Origin: an uncultured delta proteobacterium
Lineage (GTDB): Bacteria > Desulfobacterota > Desulfobacteria > Desulfobacterales > QNYZ01
Length of the DNA stretch: 64,000 bases
Reading direction: 5' to 3'
Assembly (NCBI GenBank): GCA_963845145.1
Contig: CAWJQU010000016.1
Span: 4,329 to 68,328 of the forward strand
The notes under the pieces are model-generated. The model worked only from the letters and a program-made list of their open reading frames with translations, had not been told where the DNA came from and searched no databases. This document shows positions 10,842 through 49,626 of this stretch, in pieces; position 1 is the stretch's first letter; every line of letters starts with the position of its first letter. Made by a program: the position numbers and the translations under genes.

Positions 10842-10862
10842 AGCTCTATATAGGTCATATTT

Positions 10863-11828
10863 CTATTGCACATAATCAATATTGGCTTTGATGAAAGCGA
10901 TCACCGTTTCCATGGGGATAAGAAAGCCCACTTGCTCTTCCACGCGATGTCGGCCTTTGACCACTGCAACCAGACGCCCCTGGTCGTCAAATACCGGGCT
11001 GCCGCTGTTGCCGGGTAAAACAACCATTTTTACCTGCCACAACAACTGATTGTCAGCCCGGCGGGGGGGGCCGTCAACAAAACCGGAGGTCAGCTTACCA
11101 CGCCCGTTTGCGGAGCAGCCAAGGGTGTACAGCTGGTCACCGAAATTCAAAAGATTACGGCTTTCATTCAACAAAATACCCGCCTCCTGCTTAGATGCGA
11201 CGCGGATAAGGGCTAGGTCGAGCTGCTGATCCAATAGGACAACTTGTCCACTGATTTCACGCCCGCTACGCAGGACAACGATGATATTCTGAAATGCCGC
11301 CAGATCATGGGCTGTCGATAAAATCAGCCCCTCACGGGCTTTTAGGAAAAATCCGGTCACCTGTTTTTCGGTATCACTTGTTATAATCCGCACGCAAACC
11401 ACCGCTTTTTTATAAAAACGTAAGCGTGAAGGGATAGACTTAGTGGACGTATGACGTCTTGGGAGCGTGGCGCCCACCTGTTTTGATATTTGGTACCACA
11501 ACGGTTGATATGGATCATGTATGCCCTGATCTTTTGGACCGGTCCACTGGGCTTTAACATGGCTGGCCAGGGCGGATTGAGGGCGAATAATTATATGCCA
11601 GTGCTCATCATCTTTCTCTGCTCTAAATTCGGTTTTCTGGAGGTTGACATGGGTCCTGTAAATGCGAAACCCAGTGGTTTGCAACCAGACGGTGATGACT
11701 TGTTCAACAGTCGCCTGGGGTATGGGGAATGTTTTTTCGTTTATTCCAGCCTTGATTTGCACCGGGCATAATAGCCAAGGAATAAACAGTAGCCAAATGG
11801 CATGTCGAAAATGGATTCTGCCCTTCAT
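10863..11828 (-). CDS. Secreted trypsin-like (S1/chymotrypsin-fold) serine protease with unrecognised N-terminal domain
   Basis: Signal peptide 'AIWLLFIPWLLCPVQIKAG'. Triad contexts 'LSTAHDL', 'DLALIRV' and 'LPGNSGSPVFDDQGRLVAVV'. Confidence 0.8.
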   Translation of the reverse strand: MKGRIHFRHAIWLLFIPWLLCPVQIKAGINEKTFPIPQATVEQVITVWLQTTGFRIYRTHVNLQKTEFRAEKDDEHWHIIIRPQSALASHVKAQWTGPKDQGIHDPYQPLWYQISKQVGATLPRRHTSTKSIPSRLRFYKKAVVCVRIITSDTEKQVTGFFLKAREGLILSTAHDLAAFQNIIVVLRSGREISGQVVLLDQQLDLALIRVASKQEAGILLNESRNLLNFGDQLYTLGCSANGRGKLTSGFVDGPPRRADNQLLWQVKMVVLPGNSGSPVFDDQGRLVAVVKGRHRVEEQVGFLIPMETVIAFIKANIDYVQ

Positions 11829-11979
11829 GTCTCTAAGTTTGCAAAACCCTCATAAGGAGAATGGTTAAGGCCGCATGCGATTAAATTTTGCCATCATCTT
11901 TTCTTGTTGCAGCATAGCGTAAATACGATGTCATGACAAATTAATTTAATGCATACCCTAAATATTTCCGTAAATAGGC

Positions 11980-12010
11980 TTGACATAATGACCGTGAAAT
12001 AAGCTATACT
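11980..12010 (+). promoter_or_regulatory. Candidate sigma70 promoter for the dual-FHA gene
   Basis: TTGACA (11980-85), a 19-nt spacer, then TATACT (12005-10), 57 nt upstream of ATG 12067. The spacer is longer than optimal. Confidence 0.3.
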
Positions 12011-12066
12011 TCCTGCGGGAATATCAAAATACTTAACTTTGTGTTCCATTTGGATGCCGTTATACG

Positions 12067-13155
12067 ATGCCAGAAAAACCGACCATTGTCGTTCAGCTCA
12101 TACATATCGAAGGCCCTTTGAAAGGAAAAATCGAGGAGTTCGTCGACCCGGTTTTACAGATTGGGCGTCACCCTGATTGTCAGATACGCTTTCCGAAAGA
12201 TGTGACCCTCATTTCAAGAAATCACGCCGAAATTGTCAGAGAAGGGAATCGGTTTAAACTTCTTGATCACAGTGCCAACGGAACGTTTTTAAATGGTAAG
12301 GCTATCAAAGAGGCCATTTTAAAAAACGGCGATGTTCTCATGATTGGCGATGGCGGTCCAAAGGTTAGCTTTCTGACTGAAATAAAATCGAGCGCGGGCG
12401 AAGCTTTCCAAACGTCCCCGACACCTTTAGCCATGCCTCAATCCCCAGGTAGTTCCCAAGAGGTGTCAAAACACAGGCCACCCGTACAACCGGCGCTCTC
12501 TATCCCAAAACCATCGACCCCGTCGGTAGCGCCCCGAGAGCAGATCGCTTCAAAATTTTCAGCACCAAAGCCAGGCCTTAATTCAGCCGATTTACAGGTT
12601 CAGGCACCCCTGGCAATTCAATTCGGCCCGACGATCCAGTCTTTTAAGGTACTTCCGGTAACTGTAGGGAAAAAGAATGATTGCGATTATGTGATCAACC
12701 ATGCTCACATTATAGATCGGCATGTTCAATTTTTTTATTTTGAATCCAATTATTGGGTTAAGGATCTGACCGGGCAAGGCTTGATAACCATTAACGAAAA
12801 TCCTGTCCAGGGCCAAACGCCTCTTCATCCCGGCAGCCGGTTATCATTAAGTCCTCAAGGTCCCGTTTTTCAATTTCTTAACGGCGGACGATTGGTGGAG
12901 GATGCGAATCAACCCATTAGCGCACCTTCCGAATCCCCGCAGGGTACGCCCGAGATGCCCTGGGAGATAGCCCCCAAGGCACCGCGCCGAAAAAAGAAGG
13001 CACTCGTTTTTTTAATCGGATTTTTGGTCATCCTGGTGACAGTAAGTGTATTGTATCTGCTTGTCTCCAACGCTACGGATGGTCCTGGGGCGGGTGGACT
13101 AAAAGAGTGGTGGTACCGTTGGATGGAAACGATTCGACGCGTTGTTGGGTCATAA
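12067..13155 (+). CDS. Membrane-anchored protein with two FHA domains
   Basis: FHA1 is 'LQIGRHPDCQIRFP..ISRNHAEIVREGNRFKLLDHSANGTFLNGKAI'. FHA2 is 'VTVGKKNDCDYVI..IDRHVQFFYFESNYWVKDLTGQGLITINENPV'. C-terminal TM 'ALVFLIGFLVILVTVSVLYLLV'. Confidence 0.88.
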   Translation: MPEKPTIVVQLIHIEGPLKGKIEEFVDPVLQIGRHPDCQIRFPKDVTLISRNHAEIVREGNRFKLLDHSANGTFLNGKAIKEAILKNGDVLMIGDGGPKVSFLTEIKSSAGEAFQTSPTPLAMPQSPGSSQEVSKHRPPVQPALSIPKPSTPSVAPREQIASKFSAPKPGLNSADLQVQAPLAIQFGPTIQSFKVLPVTVGKKNDCDYVINHAHIIDRHVQFFYFESNYWVKDLTGQGLITINENPVQGQTPLHPGSRLSLSPQGPVFQFLNGGRLVEDANQPISAPSESPQGTPEMPWEIAPKAPRRKKKALVFLIGFLVILVTVSVLYLLVSNATDGPGAGGLKEWWYRWMETIRRVVGS

Positions 13156-13358
13156 TAGGACGCTGACTACTTGCGTCTCCCGACGAGAGCGTTGGATTAG
13201 AAAAACCACGTCTATTTGAGCGCCCGACAATGCTTGCAGTCAATGATGGGAATATGTGACGGATAGTCGTCATTTAAGCATGAACGAGCTTTCAGATATT
13301 TGGATTGATAATTGCCAAGTATACGAGTGGAACGCTCGCGTTATATAGAGGGACGGTA

Positions 13359-14123
13359 CTACAGGTGCTCCTCGATGGCATTCTTTAAGGGGTCGGCCAT
13401 TCCTTCCAAACTGCCCAGATCGATAATTTCTTGAAAAGCTGGAATTCCTGATAGCTGCGTGACTTCGGTAATAAATTTATCTGATGGTAGAAATGTCCTT
13501 AGCGGCAGGGATAAAACGGCTACAGACAACCCGCCAAGATCATTTAGTGTTTGAATTTCAACATCGTATCTAAGATCCCTAAGAAGTACGCCAAGCATCG
13601 GGATTTGCTCAAGGAGGACGGTCATGCAAATGTGACAAAGCACTGACTGCTTTATCTCTTCCACTTGGCGAGATTCCGTTCCAGCCACCATCGCCCTGAT
13701 CCGATTAAGACTACACTCATTTTCATATGCTAAAATGAATTGTGTGGGCGAGGTAACCGTCGTTATTTTATCGCCATTTTCACCCAATTGCAGCTTGTAT
13801 TGATATGGGGTGCATATTAGCTGGGGGGATATAGCAGAAAGTGGTATGGATAACTCTTTTCGCAGACCCAAAGGTTTTTCGGCCAAGCTTGCGTAGCGTT
13901 GCTGTAACGTGGCAAAGGCCTTATCCGAACCCGGCACATCCTTTTTTGACGTGCCCTTCATATAGGATCCCAGAAAATTTTGGGGGGCAAATAGCGGTTT
14001 TATTACCGCCAAATGTGTTTTTAAACGTGTGTTAAGGGAGCCGGCAATTTTTTCTGTGGTTTGTCGAAGGCTTAAAAACTCTGCATTATCCAAGTCTTTT
14101 CGCGACACATCTTCATTAGGCAT
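13359..14123 (-). CDS. Hypothetical protein (no family recognised), co-directional downstream of the FHA-SLT gene
   Basis: 254-aa ORF with coding-like composition. No motifs recognised. Confidence 0.5.
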   Translation of the reverse strand: MPNEDVSRKDLDNAEFLSLRQTTEKIAGSLNTRLKTHLAVIKPLFAPQNFLGSYMKGTSKKDVPGSDKAFATLQQRYASLAEKPLGLRKELSIPLSAISPQLICTPYQYKLQLGENGDKITTVTSPTQFILAYENECSLNRIRAMVAGTESRQVEEIKQSVLCHICMTVLLEQIPMLGVLLRDLRYDVEIQTLNDLGGLSVAVLSLPLRTFLPSDKFITEVTQLSGIPAFQEIIDLGSLEGMADPLKNAIEEHL

Positions 14124-14313
14124 TCTAATCCCTCAAATTAATTGAATAATTTAAATCAATCGTAACATGGTTTGAATGATTCTGTCAACGATTGTCCCGA
14201 TTGATTGCCCTGATTGATTGAACCTGTAATTGTTCAAGGCGTACCCGGCCGACGTGGTTATTTATAAATTCATTTCCTTCTTTCAGGTAAGTACCTTTAT
14301 CGAAACCTTATCG

Positions 14314-15762
14314 CTACTTTGGCGAGGTTATTTTTGCTTGAATGGTACCCAAAGGATTGCCGAATGTAAATCCGAACAGCTGCGGATTTTCTCCGATAAC
14401 GGCCGCCGAAAAAATATAAAAAACATAGTCATAGGTTTGCTTAGGGATTTTCTTTTTGTATTTCAGCAACAGATTCCAAAAGTTTCGTTCGCGCGGGTTT
14501 TCAGGAATTGTCCGGATCAACTTGATCACTCTGTTTTCGCCCCAATTATAGGATGCCATGACGAGCAGCCCTGAAGCTTGAGCGTCCGTATCATATATAT
14601 CTCGTAGATATTTAGCTGCTGCCAGCGTGGCTTTTTCCGGGTTATGTCGATCATCTTGCGGGTCGGGTTGATTCTGTTTGACCAACGGACCGGTTTTTAA
14701 TCCGTATCTTCGGGCTGTGTCCGGAATAAATTGCCACATACCCTTGGCAATGCCCCAACGGGTTTTCGGCCCGACGGCATTTTTATTAAAATTACTCTCC
14801 TGAAGTGCGAGGTAAAAAAATTCAGGCGGTAAATCATATGCGGACAATGTTTGACCGATAGTGTCGATATATCCATTTTTTTTGGCTCGCGCGATCGCTC
14901 TAGCCATGCGCTGGCTTGATTTCCACTTGCCCACATACTTTAATACTTCTTTGGCAAAATCAGGCGGTACATCGATTTCGCATTCTCCAAAAATTCTTGC
15001 CGTCTGTAGAATGAGCCGCTCCTGGGGGCTGATGTCTTTTTTGTAAACTTTAAGGGTATTGATAAATTGATCGTAATTTTTTTCCATTTCCCGGCGCTTG
15101 GTCTTATACTGGTCGACTTTTTTAATGATTTTTTTGTCTTTAGTTTCCCGGGCAATCCGCAATAACTCTGAAAATTCCAGCTCCATGGCTTTCATATTGT
15201 AAAAAATATCTTTCGCCAGTTTGCGGTGTTTCTTGAGTTGATAGTGCTTTACTGTGGCAACGCTCCCCACCCCGATAAGCAGGCAGACGATAATACCGAT
15301 AATAGTAAAATATTTTCCTTTTTGTTTTTTTTGTACCTGGGAGAAAACTTGTCGAATCATCATGGTGTGCTCACCGGCCTGAGCATCGTCTTTGCTATCA
15401 AAGTAATGATTACGGTAATAGGTGAGTGATTGAGGGTCGGGCTCGGTTGACGATGGGAGGGTTTCTTCTTCGAGGGAGAGTAAAAGCAAGGGACCATCTG
15501 GGCCGAGCTGAATACGAGCGCTATTCGTTAACGGTTCCTGGTGGATTCGTTTACCGTCGATGTAGGTTCCATTGGCACTTACTAAATCCTTTATCCACCA
15601 TTGATCACCGATAAATAGAATTTCCACATGCTGCCGGCTGACGATACTATCGTGCAGCTTTACCTGGCAAGTGCTTCCCCGTCCGATACGAAATGCTTCG
15701 GAAAAAGAATAATCTACCTGGTCTGAATTACCTTTATCAATATGGACATGGACTTTGTTCAT
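14314..15762 (-). CDS. FHA domain - TM - lytic transglycosylase (SLT/GH23) fusion protein
   Basis: N-terminal FHA 'FRIGRGSTCQVKLHDSIVSRQHVEILFIGDQWWIKDLVSANGTYIDGKRI'. TM 'FTIIGIIVCLLIGVGSVATV'. C-terminal SLT motifs 'YLALQESNFNKNAV', 'GIAKGMWQFIPDTARRYGL' and 'VMASYNWG'. Confidence 0.88.
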   Translation of the reverse strand: MNKVHVHIDKGNSDQVDYSFSEAFRIGRGSTCQVKLHDSIVSRQHVEILFIGDQWWIKDLVSANGTYIDGKRIHQEPLTNSARIQLGPDGPLLLLSLEEETLPSSTEPDPQSLTYYRNHYFDSKDDAQAGEHTMMIRQVFSQVQKKQKGKYFTIIGIIVCLLIGVGSVATVKHYQLKKHRKLAKDIFYNMKAMELEFSELLRIARETKDKKIIKKVDQYKTKRREMEKNYDQFINTLKVYKKDISPQERLILQTARIFGECEIDVPPDFAKEVLKYVGKWKSSQRMARAIARAKKNGYIDTIGQTLSAYDLPPEFFYLALQESNFNKNAVGPKTRWGIAKGMWQFIPDTARRYGLKTGPLVKQNQPDPQDDRHNPEKATLAAAKYLRDIYDTDAQASGLLVMASYNWGENRVIKLIRTIPENPRERNFWNLLLKYKKKIPKQTYDYVFYIFSAAVIGENPQLFGFTFGNPLGTIQAKITSPK

Positions 15763-20042: not shown

Positions 20043-21143
20043 TCACAACTTTGGGACAAGGATTGTTCCCATATTGGCAGGAACCCCAATCTTGATATTG
20101 TTTTTACATACTTTCTCCGCGAGTTCCTTAAAGTGCTTTGGTAAAGGCGAGTTTTTTAGTTGAACTTCCCATGCCGTCCTTTTATTTGGATCGGCAAGAA
20201 GTAGGTTGTATATAGCTCTATAATATTTTTGGCATAGTTTGGCGTGATGCGCATTAACAAAAAAATTATCCCAACGATAAGTATATCCTAGTCTGTTCTT
20301 GATCCTATCTAAGCGCGTAGCTGAATCACCTTTCTTTACTGATTTTTTGTTTGTAGCTACCCACTTTCCCCCTTTTTTTTCTACGTCGTAGTAATCTCGG
20401 GCAAAACGTTTAAGGACACTGGTTTTTCTAATCGGGCATTTTAGATTTATTTTACAATATGCGTCTAGTAATGCTTTATCCGAGAGTGCTTTTGGAATTT
20501 TGTGTGGGACTCCACACTGATCGAGGAAACGACCTCCAATTATTAATCCCACTTCGCCGATGGGGAATTGTGAGTCGTTTAGGTGCTGTACCGCAGAACC
20601 GTGGGTTCCGGGAAGCGGGAGATAGCACTCCCCCTTACTTCGACCAGGCAATGTTAACCGCTGCAAACCAAAAAACGTTTTACTTGACTCGTTCTTCATT
20701 GCCACACAATAAAATCTTTTAACGTTTTTGTCTATCTTATGTTTCTCTCCTGCTGCCTCCGTTCTGCTGACGGGATCGTATGCCAAAATATTAATCTCAT
20801 CGGGTGATTTCCACCCTCTATGCTTCTTCCAATCACCCTCTTTGATTTTGTCGGATAAATATTTAGAGAATCCGCCTTTATTCATATTGTTTAATTCTCC
20901 AGCAATTATTATACATTCGATAGCACCACGGCTATGGCCTATTAGATTTAATATTTTTGGCTTTTTACTCCAAATTTCCTCCATTGCTTGTTTAACCTTA
21001 TTTTTAACGTTGGTTCCTGCAGTGTTGGGACCATTTACGCGGTATTTACTTCCTTTAATGTATTGGAAAAGTTTGTTTAAAACATAATAGTCATGTTTGT
21101 CTGATTTTCCTGTTCCCAGGAGAATGACAGTTAAATTGGACAT
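20043..21143 (-). CDS. DUF2235/Tle1-like alpha/beta hydrolase (candidate orphan T6SS phospholipase-type effector)
   Basis: I place the start at ATG 21143, 7 nt after AAGGAG (the track starts at 21191). 'LTVILLGTG', nucleophile elbow 'LIGHSRGAIECIIIAGEL', 'ILAYDPVS', 'FYCVAMKNESSKTF' and 'LPLPGTHGSAV' parallel the DUF2235 blocks (DGT.., GFSRGA, wDtV, HAlaiDErR, GvHsdVGG). The gene is visibly AT-rich. Confidence 0.6.
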   Translation of the reverse strand: MSNLTVILLGTGKSDKHDYYVLNKLFQYIKGSKYRVNGPNTAGTNVKNKVKQAMEEIWSKKPKILNLIGHSRGAIECIIIAGELNNMNKGGFSKYLSDKIKEGDWKKHRGWKSPDEINILAYDPVSRTEAAGEKHKIDKNVKRFYCVAMKNESSKTFFGLQRLTLPGRSKGECYLPLPGTHGSAVQHLNDSQFPIGEVGLIIGGRFLDQCGVPHKIPKALSDKALLDAYCKINLKCPIRKTSVLKRFARDYYDVEKKGGKWVATNKKSVKKGDSATRLDRIKNRLGYTYRWDNFFVNAHHAKLCQKYYRAIYNLLLADPNKRTAWEVQLKNSPLPKHFKELAEKVCKNNIKIGVPANMGTILVPKL

Positions 21144-21289
21144 CTGGCTACTCCTTTTATGATTAAAATAAGACGGGTTTATGCCATTCAATCATTTTGG
21201 TATTTGGCGTATACATTGTCGATGCATCAATTCCGTAGGCTCCCAATATTTCCAGATCAATTCGAAATTAATCCGTTTCGCCAAAGTCA

Positions 21290-22000: not shown

Positions 22001-22645
22001 TCAGCGGATTTGCGGCACATTGATCTTTTGTGGCTGGAGGCCGGCGCGCAGTTTCGCAGGGGTGTGGCTAACCTTTCGGTTTCCATCGTTCAACAAGTGG
22101 CCGATTGCACCAGGTAATTCAGATAACGCGCCACTTGGTTTGCCTGTTTTCGGGTCTCCAGGATTGTGTAGATCAATGTGTACATTGATCACCCCAGGTG
22201 GTTTATGCTTACCGCGGAAGTGAAGCTGCGCCCCTCTGAAGCGGCTGCGCACGCCCCACAGATCGTTTTCCCAATTGGCAAGCCACCACTCGCCGAACCC
22301 GTGGTTGAGAAGGTAGCGGTGGAAGGTTGCCTGTCCTTGTCTGGCGTAAAACAGCATTTCTCCATGTTCACCGGCCCAGTAGACGGATTTAACGTGAGTC
22401 CAAAGGCCGTCTCGGTCCATCTTAGATTTGACGCACAGTAGAGAATTGCGTTCCGCGGATGTGAATTCATGGTTCCAGCGGTACTCAGGGTAGACCTGCT
22501 GCAGTGAAATGTTCTTGCCTGTGTAATACCGTTTGTGCCATTGTTCCAACTTACCGCGTGCCCATCCGAACCGACGCGATTCTATAAGGACCTGCGAAAG
22601 TTCCTGTTGCAATTTCTTCCCGAGTTCACGCCATGGATTAGCCAT
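22001..22645 (-). CDS. Hypothetical Trp-rich protein
   Basis: 214-aa ORF with an ATG start. 'WAGEHGEMLFYARQ..GEWWLANWENDLWG..VINVHIDLHNPGDP'. No family recognised. Confidence 0.5.
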   Translation of the reverse strand: MANPWRELGKKLQQELSQVLIESRRFGWARGKLEQWHKRYYTGKNISLQQVYPEYRWNHEFTSAERNSLLCVKSKMDRDGLWTHVKSVYWAGEHGEMLFYARQGQATFHRYLLNHGFGEWWLANWENDLWGVRSRFRGAQLHFRGKHKPPGVINVHIDLHNPGDPKTGKPSGALSELPGAIGHLLNDGNRKVSHTPAKLRAGLQPQKINVPQIR

Positions 22646-22977: not shown

Positions 22978-24537
22978 ATGCAAACCAGCTACGACGAAAT
23001 CCCCTATAAAAGCAATCCTTTTCCACAGACACATCCAGATCGTCTTGCGACACTCGCCCATTTGTTCGGAATGAAACCCACCCCCGTCACAAAATGTCGG
23101 GTACTTGAATTGGGATGTGCCAGTGGTGGAAATCTCATCCCCATGGCGTTTCATCTTCCGGAAAGTGAATTTGTTGGTGTCGACCTATCGGGTCGACAAG
23201 TGAAGCAGGCATTAAAAACAATTGATGACCTGGAATTAACAAATATTCGCATCGAAAACTCGTCTATCATGGATATCAGCGAGTCTTGGGGAACTTTTGA
23301 CTATATCATCTGTCACGGTGTCTATTCCTGGGTATCCGAAGAAGTCCAGAATAAAATCTTAGCTATTTCATCCAGAAATCTTTCACCCCAAGGTGTATCC
23401 TATGTGAGCTACAACACCTATCCCGGGTGGCATCTTCGAGAGATGATCCGCCATATGATGCGTTATCATGCCGACCAGTTTCAGGACACCACCCAGCGCA
23501 TCGAACAGGCGCGGGCTCTAATTGATTTTTTGGCGGGATCCGTATCAACGGAAAGTTATTTTGGACTTATGCTAAAAAGCGAACTCGAGCTGGTCAGAAA
23601 GAGCCAGAACGCTTACTTATTTCACGAACATCTCGAGGACGTCAATACACCTAATTATTTTCATCAGTTCATCGAGCGGGCGAAGCGATATGGTTTGCAA
23701 TACCTTGCCGAAGCAGAATTTACCACCATGATCAATAGCGGTTTCCCCGATGATGTGGCCGAGACCTTAAATCGAATCAGTTCGAATATTATTCAATCTG
23801 AGCAATATATGGACTTTTTGCGCAACCGTTTCTTCCGACAAACGCTTCTATGTCATAAAGAGCATACCCTCAACCGGAACTTGGATGCGGATAGCTTGGG
23901 TGATCTGCTAATTGCATCCCCAGCATGTCCGGAATCAACTCCCATAGACCTTTCACCCGGCAAAAAACAATCTTTTCGTACGCCCTCAGATTTGGCGTTT
24001 AATACTGAATTACCGCTGACAAAAGCGGTATTAACCGTGTTGAATGAGCATTGGCCAAAGGCAATCGATCTATATAGTTTAATGCAAGAGGCCTGTCACC
24101 GATTAGATATAAACCACACATGCAATGAAATTATTAAGGAGTGTCAGGCAGTGAAGCAGGATCTACTTCACTCTTACTCTTTGAATATTGTTGAATTTCA
24201 CACTTGGCAGGCCGCTTTTGAAAGAAAAGTTAGTGCGCACCCAAAAGTGAGCAGACTGGCAGCCTATCAAACCGCAAGAGGGCAAACCGTCGCCAACCAG
24301 CGTCACGAACGTGTCAGACTGGATGAAATTGGTCAAGAGTTGATACGCCTTCTAGACGGTAAGCGGAATCAAAAGGCGTTATGGGAACATTTGAACAAGT
24401 GTGTGAAAGAGAGGACTTTGGTCATACGGCAGGATGGTGTGCTTCTGACTGACCAAGAGATGGTTCAGCAAACCCTTGATCAGACCTTGGGGCAAACTTT
24501 AGAGAAGTTGGCGGATGCTGCGCTTCTTGTTGGGTAA
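22978..24537 (+). CDS. Class I SAM-dependent methyltransferase with C-terminal methyltransferase-regulatory domain (rickettsial PKMT-like architecture)
   Basis: 'YDEIPYKSNPFPQTHPDRLATLAHLFGM', motif I 'VLELGCASGGNLIPMA' and 'FDYIICHGVYSWV'. The long C-terminal half resembles the MethyTransf_Reg domain (from memory). Confidence 0.8.
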   Translation: MQTSYDEIPYKSNPFPQTHPDRLATLAHLFGMKPTPVTKCRVLELGCASGGNLIPMAFHLPESEFVGVDLSGRQVKQALKTIDDLELTNIRIENSSIMDISESWGTFDYIICHGVYSWVSEEVQNKILAISSRNLSPQGVSYVSYNTYPGWHLREMIRHMMRYHADQFQDTTQRIEQARALIDFLAGSVSTESYFGLMLKSELELVRKSQNAYLFHEHLEDVNTPNYFHQFIERAKRYGLQYLAEAEFTTMINSGFPDDVAETLNRISSNIIQSEQYMDFLRNRFFRQTLLCHKEHTLNRNLDADSLGDLLIASPACPESTPIDLSPGKKQSFRTPSDLAFNTELPLTKAVLTVLNEHWPKAIDLYSLMQEACHRLDINHTCNEIIKECQAVKQDLLHSYSLNIVEFHTWQAAFERKVSAHPKVSRLAAYQTARGQTVANQRHERVRLDEIGQELIRLLDGKRNQKALWEHLNKCVKERTLVIRQDGVLLTDQEMVQQTLDQTLGQTLEKLADAALLVG

Positions 24538-24626
24538 ACTATTCGACAACTACCTTTTGGACGTCCACGCTTTTTAATTCGAATCGCTTTGGCGCCGCCT
24601 TGCTCATATGATATATTATACTACGA

Positions 24627-25526
24627 CTATATTTCCTGCCCTGTTCTGGAATCAATGGTCGGGCCATCTATACCTCGTCGGTATGTAGGCTCACTTCCAG
24701 TAGCATCGGAAGCTTGTCCTGCAAGGTAGGAAACAGCGGGAGTTACCAGTGCACTGATAGCATTGCCAGTACCTCCGCCCGCATCACCACCTAGTCCTGC
24801 CATTGCTGCCGCATTCATTAGCGCGCTTAAAACTGTATCAGCCGGTTGCCCTTGAGAAGGAAGTCTTGATAAAACGTGGTTAATCAGGGCTCCCGATAAT
24901 GCGCCGGCAATTGCTTGAACATTACAATTAGCACCGCCGATTGCTCTGCCTATAACGGCTGTTAATGCGTCGCCAATCATTCCAATACCTCCGGCAAAAA
25001 GGTCCCCAAGGGTAAAGGCGACGTTTCTCGTGCTAACTAACTGAAAGCAAAAGGTGGTCGGGGCAACAAAGGGCCAACCGGAAACATCCTGGCAATTTTG
25101 TGTAGATATTACCCATGCGGGAGTAGAAACAGCTACGGGAGTGTCTCCGCCCGGGGCGGAACCATCCACTGGTTCACGCACTGAAAATGAAGGGAGCCAA
25201 TATTTGGTTGATGAGGCGAGTATGCGAAGCAGGATCGACGGTGATGCAACTATAGGTGGAGACGGTATATGTGTTTGCCCCGGCCCCCAATTGTGTCCCC
25301 AAAGTATATTGCCGATCCCCTCAGTAGTCACCCTTTGCCATGACCACTTTCCGGTCAAGGCAAATCCTGATATTTGACTATTAATTACAACAAACCATGG
25401 AATGCTTGGGATGATGACAGGATTTGGTGGGGCTGGCGGAGGAGGAGGAATACTCGGCGGCGCAACCGAATGGAAGTCCACACCAACGCCGGCTATGGGC
25501 GGATATTTTGCAATTCGTGCCGTCAT
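24627..25526 (-). CDS. Candidate T6SS cargo effector: Pro-rich N-terminal region plus C-terminal glycine-zipper/amphipathic region
   Basis: Last gene of the vgrG operon. ATG 25526 lies 1 nt after the upstream TAA (alternative start 25547). 'VAPPSIPPPPPAPPNPVIIPSIPW'. C-terminus 'GDLFAGGIGMIGDALTAVIGRAIGGANCNVQAIAGALSGALIN..AAMAGLGGDAGGGTGNAISALV'. Confidence 0.6.
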   Translation of the reverse strand: MTARIAKYPPIAGVGVDFHSVAPPSIPPPPPAPPNPVIIPSIPWFVVINSQISGFALTGKWSWQRVTTEGIGNILWGHNWGPGQTHIPSPPIVASPSILLRILASSTKYWLPSFSVREPVDGSAPGGDTPVAVSTPAWVISTQNCQDVSGWPFVAPTTFCFQLVSTRNVAFTLGDLFAGGIGMIGDALTAVIGRAIGGANCNVQAIAGALSGALINHVLSRLPSQGQPADTVLSALMNAAAMAGLGGDAGGGTGNAISALVTPAVSYLAGQASDATGSEPTYRRGIDGPTIDSRTGQEI

Positions 25527-25527
25527 T

Positions 25528-26823
25528 TTAAAACCTATGCATATCAATTATAATTGTTGGCAATAATTTGTCCAACTGACCTTGGCTAATGGGTTTAGTT
25601 AGAACAGTTCGAGCCGACCAGATTAAATTTAAACTTTGTTTATGTAAATCAATGCAAACTAGCATTAGTTGCGTATCGGCAGGTGATGAATCTACATGTG
25701 GAGAATTAAGTGCAAAGATGGGCCTTTCACCTGGTAATTGGACTATATATTCAGATATACGCTTATTCATTCCAATAAGCTGGATTTTTTCATTTCCTCT
25801 TAAAAACGGTAGCCAGAGTCCCAGCGAAGCACAACGGCCGGCCAACGGGTGAATTAAATTTTGTAGTTCGGAAATTGGCGTAGAAAAAACGTTTCCACGG
25901 CAATAATCCTTTGGGATCAATGAGAGAGCCACTTCTTTTACCGGTTCTTGATTAAGTGCTATTGCTGGAGGTAATCCAACCATGGCTGATCGAGGGAAAG
26001 ACTGAACGTCAAAATAATCGAATCCCACTGGAAGAGGCTGCTTATTCCAGGTTAACGGATTATCAACAATGAGCCGCTCCGTAGTCAGCCGGTCATCAAC
26101 TCGCTCAAGATTCGGTAACTCACGCCCTTCTATGAACTTACGATTCCCCTCGATGACATACCCTTTTCCATAACAATTACGTGGATACACGAGTGGAGGG
26201 GAATCTTTCAAATAGGCTTCGGCCACGGGTTTAACTCGGCGGATATGATCTGGAGCCGCGTTCTTACTGATCTCTTTCAGTAATGTCTCTTCGAAACTTA
26301 AATCTCTGCCACCATACGCATTTTCATATCGAAGCGCCATCTCCTCGAAAGGTTCCGGTGGAGTAAAAATAAGCCGCCCCTTTACATAGTCACAGAAACG
26401 TCGACCAATAACGTCCGCAGCATGGCGATAGTCACCGACTTGCACGGCAACAGTCATACTTTTAGTGGGATGAACCGATTGGGCACTAGCTTGCACTACC
26501 AGATCGGTTCCATTCTTAACCCCTATTATTTCCGGTAGTGACTTATACGAAAAAGGCTCGGTATCCGGTGTCGTTTTGTCATCATCATATCGGATACCTT
26601 GTTCATCAAGCGGAATCTGTTCATCAGCCGGCACACTGGGGCGATCATGGCTGAAATCATAAGTTCTTTTGTGAATGACGGTTAATTCCTCCACACCCTT
26701 AATATTCACTACCGTTAACTTAGTTTGCCCTGGGGATTGGATGTGGATATGGGAAGGAATACCTGTTTTGGATGCCTGTTCAAATGGTATCGGCTGGGGA
26801 ATTGTTTTTTTAATATCAACCAT
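25528..26823 (-). CDS. DUF2169-family T6SS-associated protein (second copy)
   Basis: ATG 26823 overlaps the upstream stop by 8 nt. 'LTVIHKRTYDF..GTDLVVQASAQS..MTVAVQVGDYRHAADVIGRRFC..PEPFEEMALRYENAYGG' follows the DUF2169 block order. Confidence 0.7.
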   Translation of the reverse strand: MVDIKKTIPQPIPFEQASKTGIPSHIHIQSPGQTKLTVVNIKGVEELTVIHKRTYDFSHDRPSVPADEQIPLDEQGIRYDDDKTTPDTEPFSYKSLPEIIGVKNGTDLVVQASAQSVHPTKSMTVAVQVGDYRHAADVIGRRFCDYVKGRLIFTPPEPFEEMALRYENAYGGRDLSFEETLLKEISKNAAPDHIRRVKPVAEAYLKDSPPLVYPRNCYGKGYVIEGNRKFIEGRELPNLERVDDRLTTERLIVDNPLTWNKQPLPVGFDYFDVQSFPRSAMVGLPPAIALNQEPVKEVALSLIPKDYCRGNVFSTPISELQNLIHPLAGRCASLGLWLPFLRGNEKIQLIGMNKRISEYIVQLPGERPIFALNSPHVDSSPADTQLMLVCIDLHKQSLNLIWSARTVLTKPISQGQLDKLLPTIIIDMHRF

Positions 26824-27838
26824 AATGGTCTTCCGGCCGGGTGCGTGGTCTGACTATAGGATCGTCAAACCCTTCAAGTTTAACGCAGCGTTTTTCCAAT
26901 GGACTAAAAAGGTAACGAAAAAGGCACAAATAACCGGCAATCAACACTCTTTCATCGGCAAGGATAACGAGCGATGATAATGTGGAGGGAAAGCGGCTAT
27001 GAAGAGAACCCACTGTAACAATAGCCGTCGGCCCAATAGAGGGAGGGGTAGGGAAGATGATATCTCCTGTGGTAGATAATCCGGATAATCGTATATTTGC
27101 CCCAATTTCCCCATTTTTTATTACCAGTTCAGGTACAGTTTGATTGAATACGGACTCAATCAGAGGAATCATCAGATCCTCAGGGTCGGCTGATTCTTTT
27201 TCATTAAAATACATCCCTTTAGGTTTGAAGAAGCAGGCCGGAGGAGGTTGATCGCTCCATCTCCGGATCAGAGAGTCCTGCTGCTCCAGGTTAGGGAGCG
27301 GTTGGCCCTCAGCCTGGCTCTTGGACAAGTAAAAACCACGACCATCTGGATTTACGGAGTGGGCAAGCTCACTATCCTCCCATACCGCCTTGCCACCATA
27401 AGCGTAATTGTTTGAAAGATCCATTTCCAAAAAAGGTAAAGGTTCGGAAGCGACGAGTTCACCATTGGACACCCTCCAAGTCCGATCACCAAATACCTCT
27501 ATTTTATGTGAAACATTACCGCATTCCACAGCAACATACATTCTTTTAACGGGTTCTGCTTTTAATGCAATCGCCTTACCGAAAACAATAATATCAATAC
27601 CTTTTTTTCGATAATCCAATTCCGGTGCCAAACTTATGTCTCTGAATACAAAGGGTTTTTCGAATACTGGCCAACCTTCTTCGGGATCAACCGGTATCAA
27701 AGATTCTCGGTCGAGGGAATAGGTGATTTTACTAGCCACAATACCGAGCATTTCCGTATCACCCATGGAGCCGGAAAGAAAGTCGGCCGGGAACCTTGTC
27801 GAATTGATAAACTTCATCAGATAGTCACTAATCCTCAC
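26816..27838 (-). CDS. DUF2169-family T6SS-associated protein (first copy)
   Basis: 'MKFINSTRFPADFL..MLGIVASKITYSL..LDYRKKGIDIIVFGKA..VAVECGNVSHKIEVFGDRTWRV..PFLEMDLSNNYAYGG'. The likely true start is ATG 27817 ('MKFINST') rather than GTG 27838. Confidence 0.75.
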   Translation of the reverse strand: MRISDYLMKFINSTRFPADFLSGSMGDTEMLGIVASKITYSLDRESLIPVDPEEGWPVFEKPFVFRDISLAPELDYRKKGIDIIVFGKAIALKAEPVKRMYVAVECGNVSHKIEVFGDRTWRVSNGELVASEPLPFLEMDLSNNYAYGGKAVWEDSELAHSVNPDGRGFYLSKSQAEGQPLPNLEQQDSLIRRWSDQPPPACFFKPKGMYFNEKESADPEDLMIPLIESVFNQTVPELVIKNGEIGANIRLSGLSTTGDIIFPTPPSIGPTAIVTVGSLHSRFPSTLSSLVILADERVLIAGYLCLFRYLFSPLEKRCVKLEGFDDPIVRPRTRPEDHYG

Positions 27839-28163
27839 TAAAGTCAGGGTGGCCTACACAAGGAATTTCCTGTAACCTTTTATGGTTTTTAAAAACGGCA
27901 AGCTCCATGAATTTCTGTGAGCGATTATTAAAATCTTCATCATCATCAATATCTTTATTGTGATCGGTCTCAATTAATTGTCGTAACTTAGAATTATAAA
28001 ATTCATGTTTGAAGTTCTCCATAACAGCATCTTCGCGTGAAGCCCAGTCTTCCATATCAGGAGAATTTCCGGCAACTATCAGGTTTAAGAATTCTTCACG
28101 TAAGAGCCCCAGCTTGTTTTCTAAAAAAAGAACTGCAGCAACGTCTCGTATGGATTTCAGCAT
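27828..28163 (-). CDS. Small acidic hypothetical protein in vgrG operon (possible chaperone or immunity protein; unassigned)
   Basis: 111-aa ORF, helix-rich by eye, with an acidic patch 'DHNKDIDDDEDFNN'. No signal peptide or TM. Confidence 0.55.
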   Translation of the reverse strand: MLKSIRDVAAVLFLENKLGLLREEFLNLIVAGNSPDMEDWASREDAVMENFKHEFYNSKLRQLIETDHNKDIDDDEDFNNRSQKFMELAVFKNHKRLQEIPCVGHPDFSED

Positions 28164-28284: not shown

Positions 28285-28713
28285 TCAGCAATTTAAACGA
28301 ATCCGTTCGCCATCCAGTTTAACATCGTCATTTGCTTTGATATCAATGTCTCCAAGATCGGCAGTAATCATTTGGCCCCGAGCCTTGCTGTACAGGTCAC
28401 CCTCTGCCTCAATATGAATGTTTCCATCTGTTGTCAGAGCCATATCTTTTCGGCTGTGAATAGATACTCTTTCAGCATCAATAGCTAAATTCCCCTCAGC
28501 CTGGATCGTTAGAGTCCCTCCACCGATTTTCAACACCGGCCCAGCTGTAGTGATTTGAATCGATAGACTCAAATTACCATCTGAACCAACGATATTTAAG
28601 ACATTGCTGAGCTGATGGTTCTCAATTACGAGTTTTTGTTTTGCAACAAGAGCCACCGTTTTTGTATTTGTCGCTTTTGTAAGTGCTTGGCTCTTTTTCA
28701 TAAAGTATTCCAA
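28285..28713 (-). CDS. Free-standing beta-helix-repeat protein resembling a VgrG C-terminal spike extension
   Basis: Starts 4-16 nt after the vgrG stop (TTG 28713 or ATG 28701). Reiterated alternating pattern 'LSLSIQITTAG..LKIGGGTLTIQAEGNLAIDAERVSIHSRKDMALTTDGNIHIEAEGDLY..DIDIKANDDVKLDGERIRLN'. Confidence 0.65.
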   Translation of the reverse strand: MEYFMKKSQALTKATNTKTVALVAKQKLVIENHQLSNVLNIVGSDGNLSLSIQITTAGPVLKIGGGTLTIQAEGNLAIDAERVSIHSRKDMALTTDGNIHIEAEGDLYSKARGQMITADLGDIDIKANDDVKLDGERIRLNC

Positions 28714-28716
28714 TCT

Positions 28717-30684
28717 TTAAGCATTATGTTTTATTAGAGAAGCTGTTTCGGTAATGATTCCACCCGTACTGATATTAACGCCACTGCCATCGGCTTTTGT
28801 TATGGAACCACCGCCGGAAAGGATGGACGTAGGCGCTTCGATTTTAGCCTCGGCAGGACTGCTCATAAAGGCATTGGCATCCAAGGTAATGCTGGAACCT
28901 CCCCCCGCACTGATGGTTATCTTGGCGGGTTCAATGGTTACCGAGCTTCCCCCACAAGTCAGCTTGATCTTGGCCGGGGCCTGCATGTTAATTTCACTTG
29001 TGGTATCGAGCTGGTAATTACCGGTCACATTTACCGTTCGGTTGCCAGCCTCTACCGTCAGGCTGGTATCCCCTTTGACTGTAACAGATCGGGTTCCCGC
29101 CTGAACTCCGATGGTATCGTTTCCTCCAACGATAGTTGTTGTGCGATCGTTTTCGATGGTTGATCCCATATCCTTCTGCGCATGGATGGTTACACCCTCT
29201 TTTCCTTTGGTATCATTTAACGAGAATTCATTGTACCCACCGCTGCCGGGAGTGCTGTTGGATTTCATACCACTGACAACTTTTTGGCCGGGAAGCCCGA
29301 AAGGCGGCATTAGTTCGGCGTTGTAAACGCGGCCGGTGATGAGGGGTCGGTCAGGATCGCCTTCCATGAAGCTGACTATCACCTCTTCGCCGATACGGGG
29401 AATATCGATTCCGCCAAACCCTTTTCCGGCATGAACCTGGGATACTCGGATCCAGCAGGAGGTGTTTTCATCGTACTTTCCTTCCCGGTCCCAGTGGAAC
29501 TGCACCTTGACCTGTCCGTTTTTATCCGTAAAGATCTCTTCTCCGGGAGGGCCGGTAACCACAGCGGTCTGGGTGCCTTGGATTATCGGTTTGGGTGTTG
29601 TGCGCGCCGGTCGGAATTGGACGGAGCTGGGTATAGTGGTAAAGGCACATGAACAGATCTCACCCTGCCCGCCGGAGGTTTCATAATCTTCGGCCGCAGC
29701 TTGATAATCGGTGGACAAAATCAAATACTCACGGTTCTGGTCTCTACGTGTATGCTGGGCCATGGTAAAGAGATAACCCGCGCAAATGCCCCGGGAATCC
29801 GCCTGACCGCTGCAGACCTCATGGGATTGGGCCAACTCTTCCATGCGGATTTTGGCATATTTGTCGCCATCGGCTTTTTCCGAATATTCGCCCGGATAGT
29901 CATAAATTTCATATTCAGCCTCGGCATGCTCCTTTATATCCTCTTCCGTGCTCATCAAAGAGGTACTCGGTTTTTCAAAATTGTAATCGGTATGGGCGAC
30001 TTTCCCAGGCTGGACGCATTTTTCGACCGTCCATGTACTGATTCGTTCCTGGATCGACGAGCTGCGGGTATCGGGCGTAAAGTCAATCTCATCGTAATCC
30101 CCGAAAGGATCATGCTTGCTGCGCGAATCGCAAAGCACAATGGTGCATTTACCCTGCTCGTGCAGAAAATAATAATAGATGCCCTCTTGTTCCATCAGTC
30201 GGCTGACGAAGTTGAAATCCGTTTCCCGATATTGGACACAATAATTCCATGTTTGGTATCCGCCGGAAAGCCGATCCTCGATGTCGCTGAAACCCAAATC
30301 ATTAAAGACTTGTTTGATAATATCCGGGACCGTCTTTTCCTGGAAGATGCGGCAGTCTGACGTGCGGGTTAAAAACCATAACCAGGGCACCATCGTTGCG
30401 CGGTATTGGGCAAACTGGGTACTGGTCGACACACCTTGCACAAAACGGTTGATATACCCATTCCAGTAGCGCTTGCCTCCTTCGGGTAATTCCATGCTAA
30501 TCGTTACATTCTGTCCGATGATATCGTCGAAGTTGATTTCGTAGTCTTCGCTTAACAGGTTGAGATCAAACTCAAATAAGCGACTGATCTCTTCATGCGC
30601 AGAGAAACTCTGTAGCAACAGCACATCTTCGCCCAAAGATGTTTCTATAGCGATATGTCGGGTTGCCTGGGTTGGTTGAGGCAT
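28717..30684 (-). CDS. vgrG: T6SS spike protein VgrG (TssI), no C-terminal effector extension
   Basis: 'FEFDLNLLSED..YRATMVPWLWFLTRTSDCRIFQEKTVPDIIKQVF..YCVQYRETDFNFVSRLMEQEGIYYYF..WIRVSQVHAGKGFG..PRIGEEVIVSFMEGDPDRPLITG'. Confidence 0.96.
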   Translation of the reverse strand: MPQPTQATRHIAIETSLGEDVLLLQSFSAHEEISRLFEFDLNLLSEDYEINFDDIIGQNVTISMELPEGGKRYWNGYINRFVQGVSTSTQFAQYRATMVPWLWFLTRTSDCRIFQEKTVPDIIKQVFNDLGFSDIEDRLSGGYQTWNYCVQYRETDFNFVSRLMEQEGIYYYFLHEQGKCTIVLCDSRSKHDPFGDYDEIDFTPDTRSSSIQERISTWTVEKCVQPGKVAHTDYNFEKPSTSLMSTEEDIKEHAEAEYEIYDYPGEYSEKADGDKYAKIRMEELAQSHEVCSGQADSRGICAGYLFTMAQHTRRDQNREYLILSTDYQAAAEDYETSGGQGEICSCAFTTIPSSVQFRPARTTPKPIIQGTQTAVVTGPPGEEIFTDKNGQVKVQFHWDREGKYDENTSCWIRVSQVHAGKGFGGIDIPRIGEEVIVSFMEGDPDRPLITGRVYNAELMPPFGLPGQKVVSGMKSNSTPGSGGYNEFSLNDTKGKEGVTIHAQKDMGSTIENDRTTTIVGGNDTIGVQAGTRSVTVKGDTSLTVEAGNRTVNVTGNYQLDTTSEINMQAPAKIKLTCGGSSVTIEPAKITISAGGGSSITLDANAFMSSPAEAKIEAPTSILSGGGSITKADGSGVNISTGGIITETASLIKHNA

Positions 30685-30908: not shown

Positions 30909-31388
30909 TTACTCGCCCGATTCCACTTTCCAGGTATACTCAACGTTTCCTTTCTTCTTACCTGTGTTGTCGTTTTCGGTGTAGGTCACTTTGATTTCTT
31001 CAAAGTTCAACGACATTTGTTCGGTCGGCACATCTTCCGCCTGCCCGCTACCACCAACGTTATAGCTCGTGACTAAAACGTTTTTCAGTTCATAGGCATA
31101 GTAAGTCACCCGTCCGGCATCGGTGGTTGAGGCCGTCAGGTGAATCTCTACCTTTGGAAAAACTTTTCCTTTGCACATGGACTCGGCAATCTTCGGGCTT
31201 GCCTTGTCCAACTCCTTTACTATCGTGACATCTTCCATTACGACGTCACCCCGACGACGGGTCGGCCCGGTGGCGGCGCCTCCCGGCTGCATAATCCCCT
31301 GGCTAAATGAAAGGATATCACTCCAGCCTTTGTGATCCTTATCCTGGGCCTCACCCTCCACGCCATCATACTTGATGTAAGCCGCCAT
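30909..31388 (-). CDS. hcp: T6SS tube protein Hcp (TssD)
   Basis: 'MAAYIKYDGVEGEAQDKDHKGWSDILSFSQGI', 159 aa, AAGGAGG RBS. Confidence 0.95.
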   Translation of the reverse strand: MAAYIKYDGVEGEAQDKDHKGWSDILSFSQGIMQPGGAATGPTRRRGDVVMEDVTIVKELDKASPKIAESMCKGKVFPKVEIHLTASTTDAGRVTYYAYELKNVLVTSYNVGGSGQAEDVPTEQMSLNFEEIKVTYTENDNTGKKKGNVEYTWKVESGE

Positions 31389-38526: not shown

Positions 38527-38710
38527 AGGCTCCCCGCTTTCTATTGTAGAGGTGAGGATCAATTCCTACTTTTCATCTTTTGAGGTATGCCAGATCGTAT
38601 TTATAATCCTTCGCATCCGTACGGATGTCTCTTACGATCTGGCCTGCCCCAGTCCTGGCCAACACCAGAGAAGCCGGTATTTTTCTGCGGGCGCAAACAG
38701 ATTGAAGGGG

Positions 38711-42235: not shown

Positions 42236-42997
42236 TTATTCCGTTTTTCCCAGCGTCCACAAACGAACGAAATCCGATGGAGACAAAGGGCGGTTAAACA
42301 CAGCTAAATAAGGTTTTTCCACGGGTCCCCCCATAAAGAGCGCGTTGGGGCACTGATTTTGATCCTCTGCGCGACGTTGCCACTGCATCATCGCGGCCTC
42401 GATAGGATCACCTCTTAATGGGACAATTTGGTCGCTTTCAATCGTCAGTCTATCGGCTTGCTTAAAGTCACTACGGCGCAGTCGTTCTGTCTCGGGTAGT
42501 GAGGTTATCGTTGTGTTGGTTAATATTGATCGTTTCAATTTTATGTCAGACCAATCCACAACGGGTGGTTGGAATTTACCTAAAGCCCGCTCGAGTTCAC
42601 TGAATTTTTCGGCACGGGAAGCAGTAAGTTCTTCCATCCTGCGCCAAGTAAGTTCTAATCCTACTGACAGATATTCCCAATAGCGTTCCCATCCTTTTAA
42701 TTTGCCAGTGCCCATGACCAGTAGGGGATAGGGCCGGCCTAGCCGATCACAACTATTGGTAATAACGCCACAGGCGAGGGCATGATTACCCGTCGCCTGA
42801 GTCCAAAACCGCCACGTGCAGGGTTTTCGGGCATCGCTTTCCTCGACGCTTAATTGGCTGTAGCCCTTCTGGATCCAGTTGGATAAAGCCAGTTCAACGC
42901 GAGTTTTTAGGCCCCAATTCAGGTAGTCACTAGCTGAAGGGTGTTTACCCCAAATAGTCCATTGCCACCGTAATTTGTCGATTATTGATCCCAGCAC
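42236..42997 (-). CDS. tagF: T6SS-associated protein TagF (ImpM/DUF2094)
   Basis: 'WTIWGKHPSASDYLNWGL..SNWIQKGY..WRFWTQA..ACGVITNSCDRLGRPYPLLV'. Confidence 0.85.
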   Translation of the reverse strand: MLGSIIDKLRWQWTIWGKHPSASDYLNWGLKTRVELALSNWIQKGYSQLSVEESDARKPCTWRFWTQATGNHALACGVITNSCDRLGRPYPLLVMGTGKLKGWERYWEYLSVGLELTWRRMEELTASRAEKFSELERALGKFQPPVVDWSDIKLKRSILTNTTITSLPETERLRRSDFKQADRLTIESDQIVPLRGDPIEAAMMQWQRRAEDQNQCPNALFMGGPVEKPYLAVFNRPLSPSDFVRLWTLGKTE

Positions 42998-49555: not shown

Positions 49556-49626
49556 TGGGAGCCTCCTTAAAGGTAAATGGTGGAATATAAATGAAATGTT
49601 TATCAAAAAATGAAGATATCTGTCAA

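Follow-up and report, generated by a model that had tools for sequence, protein, structure and literature searches.

A candidate PAAR-like spike tip at the end of a VgrG operon with two DUF2169 genes in an uncultured delta proteobacterium

The vgrG operon on contig CAWJQU010000016.1 of an uncultured delta proteobacterium (assembly GCA_963845145.1) ends in a gene that matches no Pfam or NCBIfam model, and this raises the question of which part of a type VI secretion system (T6SS) the gene encodes. We analysed the gene, here called X, within a stretch of 64,000 nucleotides of this contig (hereafter the window), where it stands at the end of a complete T6SS cluster that Pfam places on one strand. 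An initial annotation of the same DNA had described X as a glycine-zipper candidate effector, perhaps PAAR-like, with no adjacent immunity gene. Our analysis suggests that X is probably a divergent PAAR-like spike tip belonging to a DUF2169-dependent VgrG module, with a tail that is possibly membrane-active. The kind of system, a DUF2169-chaperoned PAAR-like spike tip, is known; what is new is an unannotated tip family, a second DUF2169 gene, the small protein p111 and the lack of an immunity gene.

Position of gene X and conservation of its operon

Gene order confirmed X as the terminal gene of the vgrG operon, which runs in the order Hcp, VgrG, p142, p111, DUF2169a, DUF2169b and X (Table 1) and is tightly packed, with neighbouring genes overlapping or almost abutting. 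The frame of X, on the minus strand, starts with an ATG at 25526, 1 nt past the stop of DUF2169b, and ends at 24627 after 299 codons. A program-made list of open reading frames (ORFs) opens it 21 nt further upstream, at a TTG at 25547; the homologues share the start M-x-A-R-I-A-K-Y-P-P, and since they begin at this same motif the ATG is the likely start. The stop codon of X is followed by an 89-nt gap (24538..24626), in which no terminator-like site was found, and then by a methyltransferase gene in convergent orientation (22978..24537); on coordinates, gap and neighbour alike the ORFs and Pfam agree with the initial annotation.

DUF2169 genes are reported to occur strictly together with VgrG and DUF4150 domains; the latter, renamed PIPY, form PAAR-shaped cones that have neither PAAR motifs nor a zinc site and need DUF2169 to yield a functional tip (Sachar et al. 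2025, PMC11883445). DUF2169 proteins chaperone the DUF4150 domain (PMC11883445, PMC13373197), and in the vast majority of genomes their genes are reported to lie near or beside their DUF4150 client. As had been proposed, X, which follows vgrG and two DUF2169 genes, occupies the slot in which this literature puts the PAAR-like protein. A local DUF4150 hidden Markov model and a search for repeated PAAR motifs found nothing in the six frames of the window, and we assign X to the tip slot on account of this result together with the DUF4150 position described in the literature.

In the Tvp systems, which are sorted into three classes, TvpA is the DUF2169 protein, and TvpC, a small VgrG mimic of the DUF6484 or DUF3540 family, retains the PAAR-like protein together with its chaperones in a pre-complex until VgrG replaces it (Monlezun, Earl and Coulthurst 2026, PMC13373197). 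The window protein p142 resembles TvpC, with sub-threshold matches to DUF3540 (E 1.7e-4, 22 bits; cutoff 27.9) and DUF2345 (E 6.9e-4), a weak match to a model of the small Francisella VgrG, and a BLASTP match to the beta-prism of the VgrG next to it (residues 492-593; E 0.003). The two DUF2169 proteins differ in their Pfam coverage, DUF2169a matching only the N-terminal ~180 positions of PF09937 (profile 7-180 of 294) and DUF2169b its full length.

A scan of one genome per species for X returned 16 loci, all in metagenome-assembled genomes (MAGs), and an exact protein look-up added three; the window proteins were compared with all ORFs of these loci, some contigs being present twice under different locus ids. 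The loci belong to Gemmatimonadota, Planctomycetota (Phycisphaerales, Brocadiaceae), Desulfobacterales or 'delta proteobacterium', and Terriglobia, and the module is so far confined to uncultured lineages. The order VgrG-p142-p111-DUF2169a-DUF2169b-X is kept in all 12 distinct contigs with enough upstream flank, which cover four phylum-level groups, and in none of these 12 does a PAAR or DUF4150 gene adjoin the module. At the closest locus, in a 'delta proteobacterium' MAG, identity is 85% in ClpV and 66% in X. In one MAG (L009, 4970..6337) an additional stretch of about 1.3 kb separates the p142 homologue from that of p111 in an otherwise contiguous module.

The sequence family of X has gone unannotated. 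A word-indexed search gave 63 homologue clusters with lengths near 300 aa, in none of which Pfam recognised a relevant domain, and an exhaustive profile search of 1.84 billion representatives gave 114 (47 of them with E < 1e-30), nearly all of 250-400 aa and alike in layout. Pfam scans of 54 close (E <= 10) and 58 distant (E <= 0.01) relatives produced only scattered unrelated matches, a PDB sequence search with the family profile returned noise (e.g. SHV beta-lactamase, E 0.8), and tblastn of X against PLSDB plasmids matched nothing. In the family alignment roughly the first 175 residues are strongly conserved, and the C-terminal part is variable and Gly/Ala-rich. The full-length AlphaFold2 model of X is confident and compact (predicted local distance difference test (pLDDT) 85, predicted template modelling score (pTM) 0.82), with a beta-rich domain to about residue 170 and then four helices.

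Relationship of the N-terminal domain to PAAR-like proteins

Among the invariant or near-invariant residues of the N-terminal domain of X are H19, H86 and C145, the most conserved residues across the whole X superfamily. The Pro-rich start to which the initial annotation had drawn attention is conserved across 54 homologues, with the consensus GxGxDxHxVxPPSxPPPPPAPPNPxPIP and an invariant P40. The kinship with DUF4150 suggested on the same occasion was not recovered by direct comparison. The Pfam model of DUF4150 (PF13665) matched neither X at E <= 1 nor any of the 112 relatives at the thresholds given above, and hhalign of the X N-terminal domain (Neff 5.4) with about 120 DUF4150 sequences gave a probability of 0.6% and a P value of 0.095, which is not significant; the comparison set was drawn from proteins of annotated plasmids and from about 120 found by protein search. 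The alignment was collinear only at low stringency, the match of PAPPNPVIIP in X to PATPPGVPVP in DUF4150 was not significant, and in the region of the P(I/V)P(Y/F) motif, from which PIPY domains build their hydrophobic core, X reads P-V-I-I-P-S-I-P-W, with a family consensus of NPxPIPxxxW.

A relationship was found by way of a second family, here called Y, which comprises more than 700 clusters and has no Pfam model. Aligned with the unmodified Y profile, the X N-terminal domain gave an hhalign probability of 46% (P 2e-4), collinear across 146 columns at lower stringency. Y contains a hydrophobic insert (residues 82-157) that is absent from X, and with this insert removed the probability was 92% (E 6e-7) over 131 collinear columns. 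In a column-shuffle control the observed score was 45.9, against 12.7 ± 2.3 (maximum 20.8) for 100 shuffled Y profiles, and scores of the X domain against unrelated profiles and against a reversed profile were low. We take these profile comparisons to show that the N-terminal domain of X is homologous to family Y. In the alignment, the Y motifs P-A-A-K, G-M-P-A-C and G-P-L-A-F face R4-I-A-K7, G70-I-G-N-I and P130-V-A-V of X, the positions equivalent to the PAAR motifs; H19, H86 and C145 of X are matched by H19, H67 and C197 in Y, and most of the proline run of X has no counterpart in Y.

Family Y in turn has several ties to PAAR. Sub-threshold PAAR_motif matches occur in 18 of 28 Y members (best E 0.005, 14-17 bits, as compared with a cutoff of 27) and sub-threshold Tox-PAAR-like matches in four of the 28, several members are labelled 'uncharacterized Zn-binding protein involved in type VI secretion' by JGI, and hhalign of Y with DUF4150 gives a P value of about 1e-3 across the PIPY-motif region. 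A PDB search with the Y profile returned invasin only (E 0.08), which we rejected as noise. From the sequence comparisons we conclude that the N-terminal domain of X is probably, by transitive evidence only, a diverged member of the PAAR-like superfamily; the negative Foldseek result reported below leaves this assignment short of proof. The PAAR-like half of the earlier proposal thus survives through family Y, whereas its DUF4150 half does not, given the Pfam and hhalign tests and the fact that the Pro run is largely an insertion. X may moreover have retained a His/His/Cys metal site, which would set it closer to PAAR than to PIPY.

The modules around these families share a further trait. In two other genomes (L027, 9001..13258; L029, 9001..13266) VgrG is followed by two DUF2169 genes, a protein of about 130 aa with an N-terminal membrane helix, Y, and then an Rhs toxin (DUF6531 and RHS repeats) without a PAAR domain of its own, a setting that also speaks for a PAAR-like Y. 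Distant relatives of X, termed X' (about 22% identity in a full-length alignment), stand between two DUF2169 genes in modules that open with VgrG and an evident homologue of p142, and the p142 homologues of the distant modules L025 and L026 were detected with E values of 8e-50 and 3e-31, respectively. All three tip families, X, X' and Y, come with two DUF2169 genes and with extra hydrophobic or Gly-rich helices. By analogy, the second DUF2169 protein might serve these extra helices, much as Eag serves prePAAR transmembrane domains, which would suggest a general rule for families X and Y whereby a second DUF2169 accompanies a tip with extra hydrophobic helices. We found no mention of a two-DUF2169 arrangement in PMC11883445 or PMC13373197. 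A Gemmatimonadales contig (L022, 10260..15343) carries an X module followed directly by VgrG, two DUF2169 genes and a 260-aa Y protein, a tandem that points to alternative tips in one genome.

Gly/Ala-rich helices and the question of immunity

The AlphaFold2 model places the four helices of X at residues 173-197, 202-219, 227-245 and 253-276. The C-terminal 124 aa contain 17.7% Gly and 17.7% Ala (35% together; family median 39%), and a Gly/Ala-rich C-region is kept in every member of the family. Small-xxx-small pairs, whose density had first singled out this region, amount to 0.16 per residue here as compared with 0.03 in the N-terminal domain, a fivefold difference; their count of 20, however, equals the expectation from composition-preserving shuffles (21.7 ± 2.7; n=2000, p = 0.79), so the 'zipper' density stems from composition and not from additional order in the spacing. 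The initial description therefore holds as a statement about composition and not as a spacing signal. Helix 1 is an exception, with a conserved i+4 ladder, G174-A178-G182-D186-A190, and with D175 and D186 invariant. The hydrophobicity of X is marginal, the maximum of the 19-residue Kyte-Doolittle window (KD19) being 1.35, and 37% of 54 relatives reach KD19 values of at least 1.6, sufficient for a membrane helix.

Such helices could mean that X is a classical membrane-depolarising antibacterial effector of the Tse4/Ssp6 type, in which case the N-terminal domain would be just a delivery handle and immunity would be provided by p111 or from elsewhere in the genome. Specialised PAAR effectors typically combine a conserved N-terminal domain with a C-region that evolves fast, as X does, and the Gly/Ala-rich composition, the conserved GxxxAxxxGxxxDxxxA ladder with its two invariant Asp residues and the clearly membrane-like helices of some homologues (KD19 up to 2.4) all speak for a toxin. 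So does P0127, a distant relative of 548 aa, whose long C-terminal extension carries HENAHHYQHE, an HExxH-type motif, and hints that the X scaffold is able to carry metallopeptidase-like cargo; the tails added in the longer relatives, on the other hand, are low-complexity stretches of Gly/Ser/Pro/Asp and not enzymatic domains. None of the 54 family members matches a known glycine-zipper Pfam family, and the vgrG next to X is the only one among the window ORFs scanned and lies inside the core cluster, so that sister cells would be hit at each firing.

The depolarising-toxin explanation also has to account for immunity. Tse4 and Ssp6 are encoded beside their immunity genes and are not known to carry a PAAR-like domain. 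X shares with them its Gly/Ala-rich helical composition and a possible membrane action; unlike them, it has a putative PAAR-like domain and no conserved immunity gene. In 15 loci no ORF downstream of X is conserved across lineages, the following gene being variously Tex, a helicase, a second vgrG or, in the window and one Desulfobacterales lineage, a methyltransferase. Since no lineage has a conserved downstream gene, the absence of an adjacent immunity gene, first remarked on for the window, is a property of the family, and it counts against an antibacterial toxin of the classical kind no less than it counts for an odd one.

The methyltransferase of the window (519 aa, plus strand) has MethyTransf_Reg and PKMT winged-helix domains, the layout of a protein-lysine methyltransferase. 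Its homologues adjoin X on the same strand in L002 (11328-12920) and L003 (5216-6808; Desulfobacterales MAG, microbial-mat contig) at 52% identity, a divergence about that of the spike module, and it is absent from the side of X in the other lineages examined. We rejected it as a part of the module, as the window apart it adjoins X in just one Desulfobacterales lineage, and there in the other orientation.

The immunity candidate put forward in the initial annotation was p111, which overlaps the start of DUF2169a by 11 nt and has a constant place inside the close X modules, between p142 and DUF2169a. Its sequence has no hydrophobic segment and no signal-like start, and it has no homologue in the distant X' modules, which keep the Gly-rich C-region. 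With its fixed place, its overlap with DUF2169a and no hydrophobic segment, p111 more probably has an accessory function than protects cells from a membrane toxin, and we consider it quite improbable that it is an immunity protein. We also discarded the idea of p111 as an accessory common to all two-DUF2169 modules, as the X' modules are without it and the ~130-aa protein of the Y modules is unrelated and membrane-anchored. Overall, we regard a depolarising toxin as unlikely.

X could, alternatively, be a purely structural cap or sharpening protein, its helices being part of the fold or a surface for chaperone binding and having no action on a target membrane. This would agree with its invariable presence in the core module without an accompanying immunity gene, with a model in which the helices pack onto the beta domain as one globule of high pTM, with the conservation of helix 1, which equals that of the N-terminal domain and has a counterpart in family Y, and with the marginal hydrophobicity. 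Canonical PAAR and PIPY caps, however, have only about 95-137 residues (PMC11883445 for PIPY size), and a structural role would need to explain why some 125 additional Gly/Ala-rich residues, membrane-like in some members, are kept throughout the family; we judge it less probable again than a toxin.

An accessory chaperone, functionally like TvpB or TvpD and serving a true PAAR or PIPY tip encoded elsewhere in the genome, would suit the lack of a direct PAAR or DUF4150 match and of a PAAR-like Foldseek match and the 64 kb of genome in view, but it is highly improbable, because X is homologous to the PAAR-like Y across its whole N-terminal domain, is unlike pentapeptide-repeat and thiolase-like proteins, and has no PAAR or DUF4150 gene beside its module in 12 contigs although DUF2169 is usually near its DUF4150 client.

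The proposed spike tip and its relation to known systems

Our preferred explanation remains that X is a divergent PAAR-like spike tip. The N-terminal ~172 residues would form a strongly diverged PAAR-like domain with its motifs decayed to RIAK, IGNI and PVAV and with His19, His86 and Cys145 retained as a candidate metal site. By analogy with the DUF2169/Tvp work, this domain would cap the blunt end of the VgrG beta-prism, perhaps after first capping the VgrG-prism mimic p142 in a pre-complex, and both DUF2169 paralogues would shield the hydrophobic surfaces of X until firing. The C-terminal ~125 residues, modelled as four Gly/Ala-rich helices packed on the N-terminal domain, would, to judge from composition and model, be a membrane-interacting module at the very tip; on firing, the helices would insert into the target membrane and either help penetration or leak ions. 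We infer all of the steps that concern activity, from the binding of X to VgrG and p142, its chaperoning by DUF2169 and its metal binding to membrane activity and toxicity.

Several points weigh against this explanation. Pfam, NCBIfam, a PDB sequence search and hhalign all failed to link X directly to PAAR or DUF4150, the last with the non-significant DUF4150 result given above. The hhalign probability of 92% depends on the post hoc removal of the Y insert, and the link from Y to PAAR draws on sub-threshold matches and a source label. Foldseek found no match to the full-length model at E <= 0.001 in the PDB (best E 0.4) or BFVD (best E 0.2), with no PAAR entry among the best 50 PDB rows; solved PAAR structures should be present in the PDB, and we treat this as a weak negative. 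An AlphaFold2 model of the N-terminal domain by itself failed (pLDDT 32, from 18 trimmed sequences) and was useless for a fold search. As for the tail, the helices are marginally hydrophobic and their small-xxx-small spacing is not above chance.

Among known systems, the closest in layout are the PIPY/DUF2169 systems (A. tumefaciens Tde2/Tap2, P. aeruginosa Tse7/PA0097, V. parahaemolyticus VP1415; PMC11883445), with which X has in common the slot that ends a vgrG-DUF2169 operon, a Pro-rich stretch near the N-terminus, a putative PAAR-like role and possible C-terminal extensions of the tip domain. X differs from them in having no DUF4150 match by Pfam or hhalign, in keeping conserved His/His/Cys positions whereas PIPY is described as being without a zinc site, in an N-terminal domain of ~172 aa as compared with ~137 aa, in its two DUF2169 paralogues instead of one and in the lack of an immunity gene after it. 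The Tvp systems (PMC13373197) likewise combine VgrG, a TvpC protein (here the TvpC-like p142), DUF2169 (TvpA) and a terminal tip protein in a single operon. Pfam, however, finds neither a pentapeptide-repeat TvpB (class III) nor a thiolase-like TvpD (class II) among the proteins of the X module, which has a second DUF2169 paralogue and the acidic p111 in addition; p142 is shorter than DUF3540 TvpC and matches DUF3540 weakly, the client is not DUF4150, and VgrG, at 655 aa, falls short of the 700-800 aa usually given for VgrGs linked to Tvp.

X resembles canonical PAAR proteins (PF05488/COG4104; V. cholerae VCA0105, PDB 4JIV as cited in PMC11883445) in its three motif positions, in His/Cys positions compatible with a metal site and in its probable tip role, the homology being transitive via Y; it differs in the decay of the motifs and in the lack of a Pfam or Foldseek match, and canonical PAAR is reported to be rarely DUF2169-dependent, unlike the X module. 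PrePAAR effectors, which have transmembrane domains and are served by Eag (DUF1795) (bioRxiv 10.1101/2020.10.28.356139), similarly join a PAAR-type tip to hydrophobic helices that need shielding before secretion, whereas in X the helices follow the PAAR-like domain instead of preceding it, no toxin domain comes after them and there is no Eag gene.

The X module is thus a conserved and widespread arrangement in poorly studied phyla, outside the three published DUF2169/Tvp classes, and the proposed role would give a name and a testable function to about 114 unannotated sequence clusters. A bolder version of the proposal, which we find rather unlikely as a whole, would make X spike tip and membrane-active agent in one, a PAAR-derived cone with a Gly/Ala-rich bundle that is kept soluble by the DUF2169 pair and acts as a leak or conduit in the target membrane. 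The module would then represent a fourth, immunity-less DUF2169/Tvp class, serving as the core spike in several uncultured phyla (Gemmatimonadota, Planctomycetota, Desulfobacterota-like, Acidobacteriota) whose kin would be protected otherwise than by a cognate immunity protein. If the tail is indeed membrane-active and has no immunity partner, this would have implications for the way in which T6SS tips cross membranes and kin avoid self-harm.

Table 1. Gene X, its parts and the T6SS genes of the window, with the basis of each assignment
Feature	Position	Strand	Basis
Gene X (299 aa, last gene of vgrG operon)	24627..25526	-	ORF and translation, homologue clusters, AlphaFold2 model
X N-terminal domain, residues 1-172 (beta-rich, strongly conserved)	25011..25526	-	Alignments; hhalign to family Y; shuffle control
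X C-region, residues 173-276	24699..25010	-	Model secondary structure, composition, shuffles
DUF2169b (431 aa, TvpA-like, full-length Pfam match)	25528..26823	-	PF09937, E 1.2e-36
DUF2169a (340 aa, TvpA-like)	26816..27838	-	PF09937, E 4e-34
p111 (111 aa, acidic, soluble, without family match)	27828..28163	-	ORF, Pfam/NCBIfam scans
p142 (142 aa, small beta-prism protein, TvpC-like)	28285..28713	-	Sub-threshold DUF3540/DUF2345, VgrG similarity
VgrG (655 aa, without C-terminal effector domain)	28717..30684	-	Phage_GPD 6e-106, Phage_base_V, Gp5_trimer_C
Hcp	30909..31388	-	Pfam T6SS_HCP, E 3.6e-35
ClpV	31546-34311	-	Pfam
TssG	34350-35369	-	Pfam
TssF	35333-37207	-	Pfam
TssE	37200-37706	-	Pfam
ImpE	37699-38562	-	Pfam
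TssC	38711-40216	-	Pfam
TssB	40213-40746	-	Pfam
TssA N-domain	41577-41990	-	Pfam
TagF	42236-42997	-	Pfam
TssM N-terminal part	44885-46780	-	Pfam
TssL	46941-47618	-	Pfam
TssK	47615-49000	-	Pfam
TssJ	49004-49606	-	Pfam

A few features of the surrounding cluster deserve mention. TssA is seemingly split, the 137-aa ImpA_N ORF (41577-41990) overlapping by 4 nt a 246-aa ORF without a Pfam match (40840-41580, minus strand). Three other minus-strand ORFs of the cluster have no significant Pfam match (42982..44829, 615 aa; 49627..50367, 246 aa; 50369..52000, 543 aa), the second of them matching T6SS_FHA_C weakly (E 0.007). Upstream of the cluster, the minus strand at 9492..15762 encodes a PEGA-domain Ser/Thr kinase, a trypsin-like peptidase and an FHA-SLT fusion, which may exert threonine-phosphorylation control of the T6SS. 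Just past the T6SS operon, in the stretch of lowest GC content (0.41), lie two minus-strand ORFs without a Pfam match (20043..21191, 382 aa; 22001..22645, 214 aa); the 382-aa protein has a GHSRGA motif resembling the nucleophile elbow of a lipase or alpha/beta-hydrolase and, on the basis of this motif, could be a candidate orphan effector.

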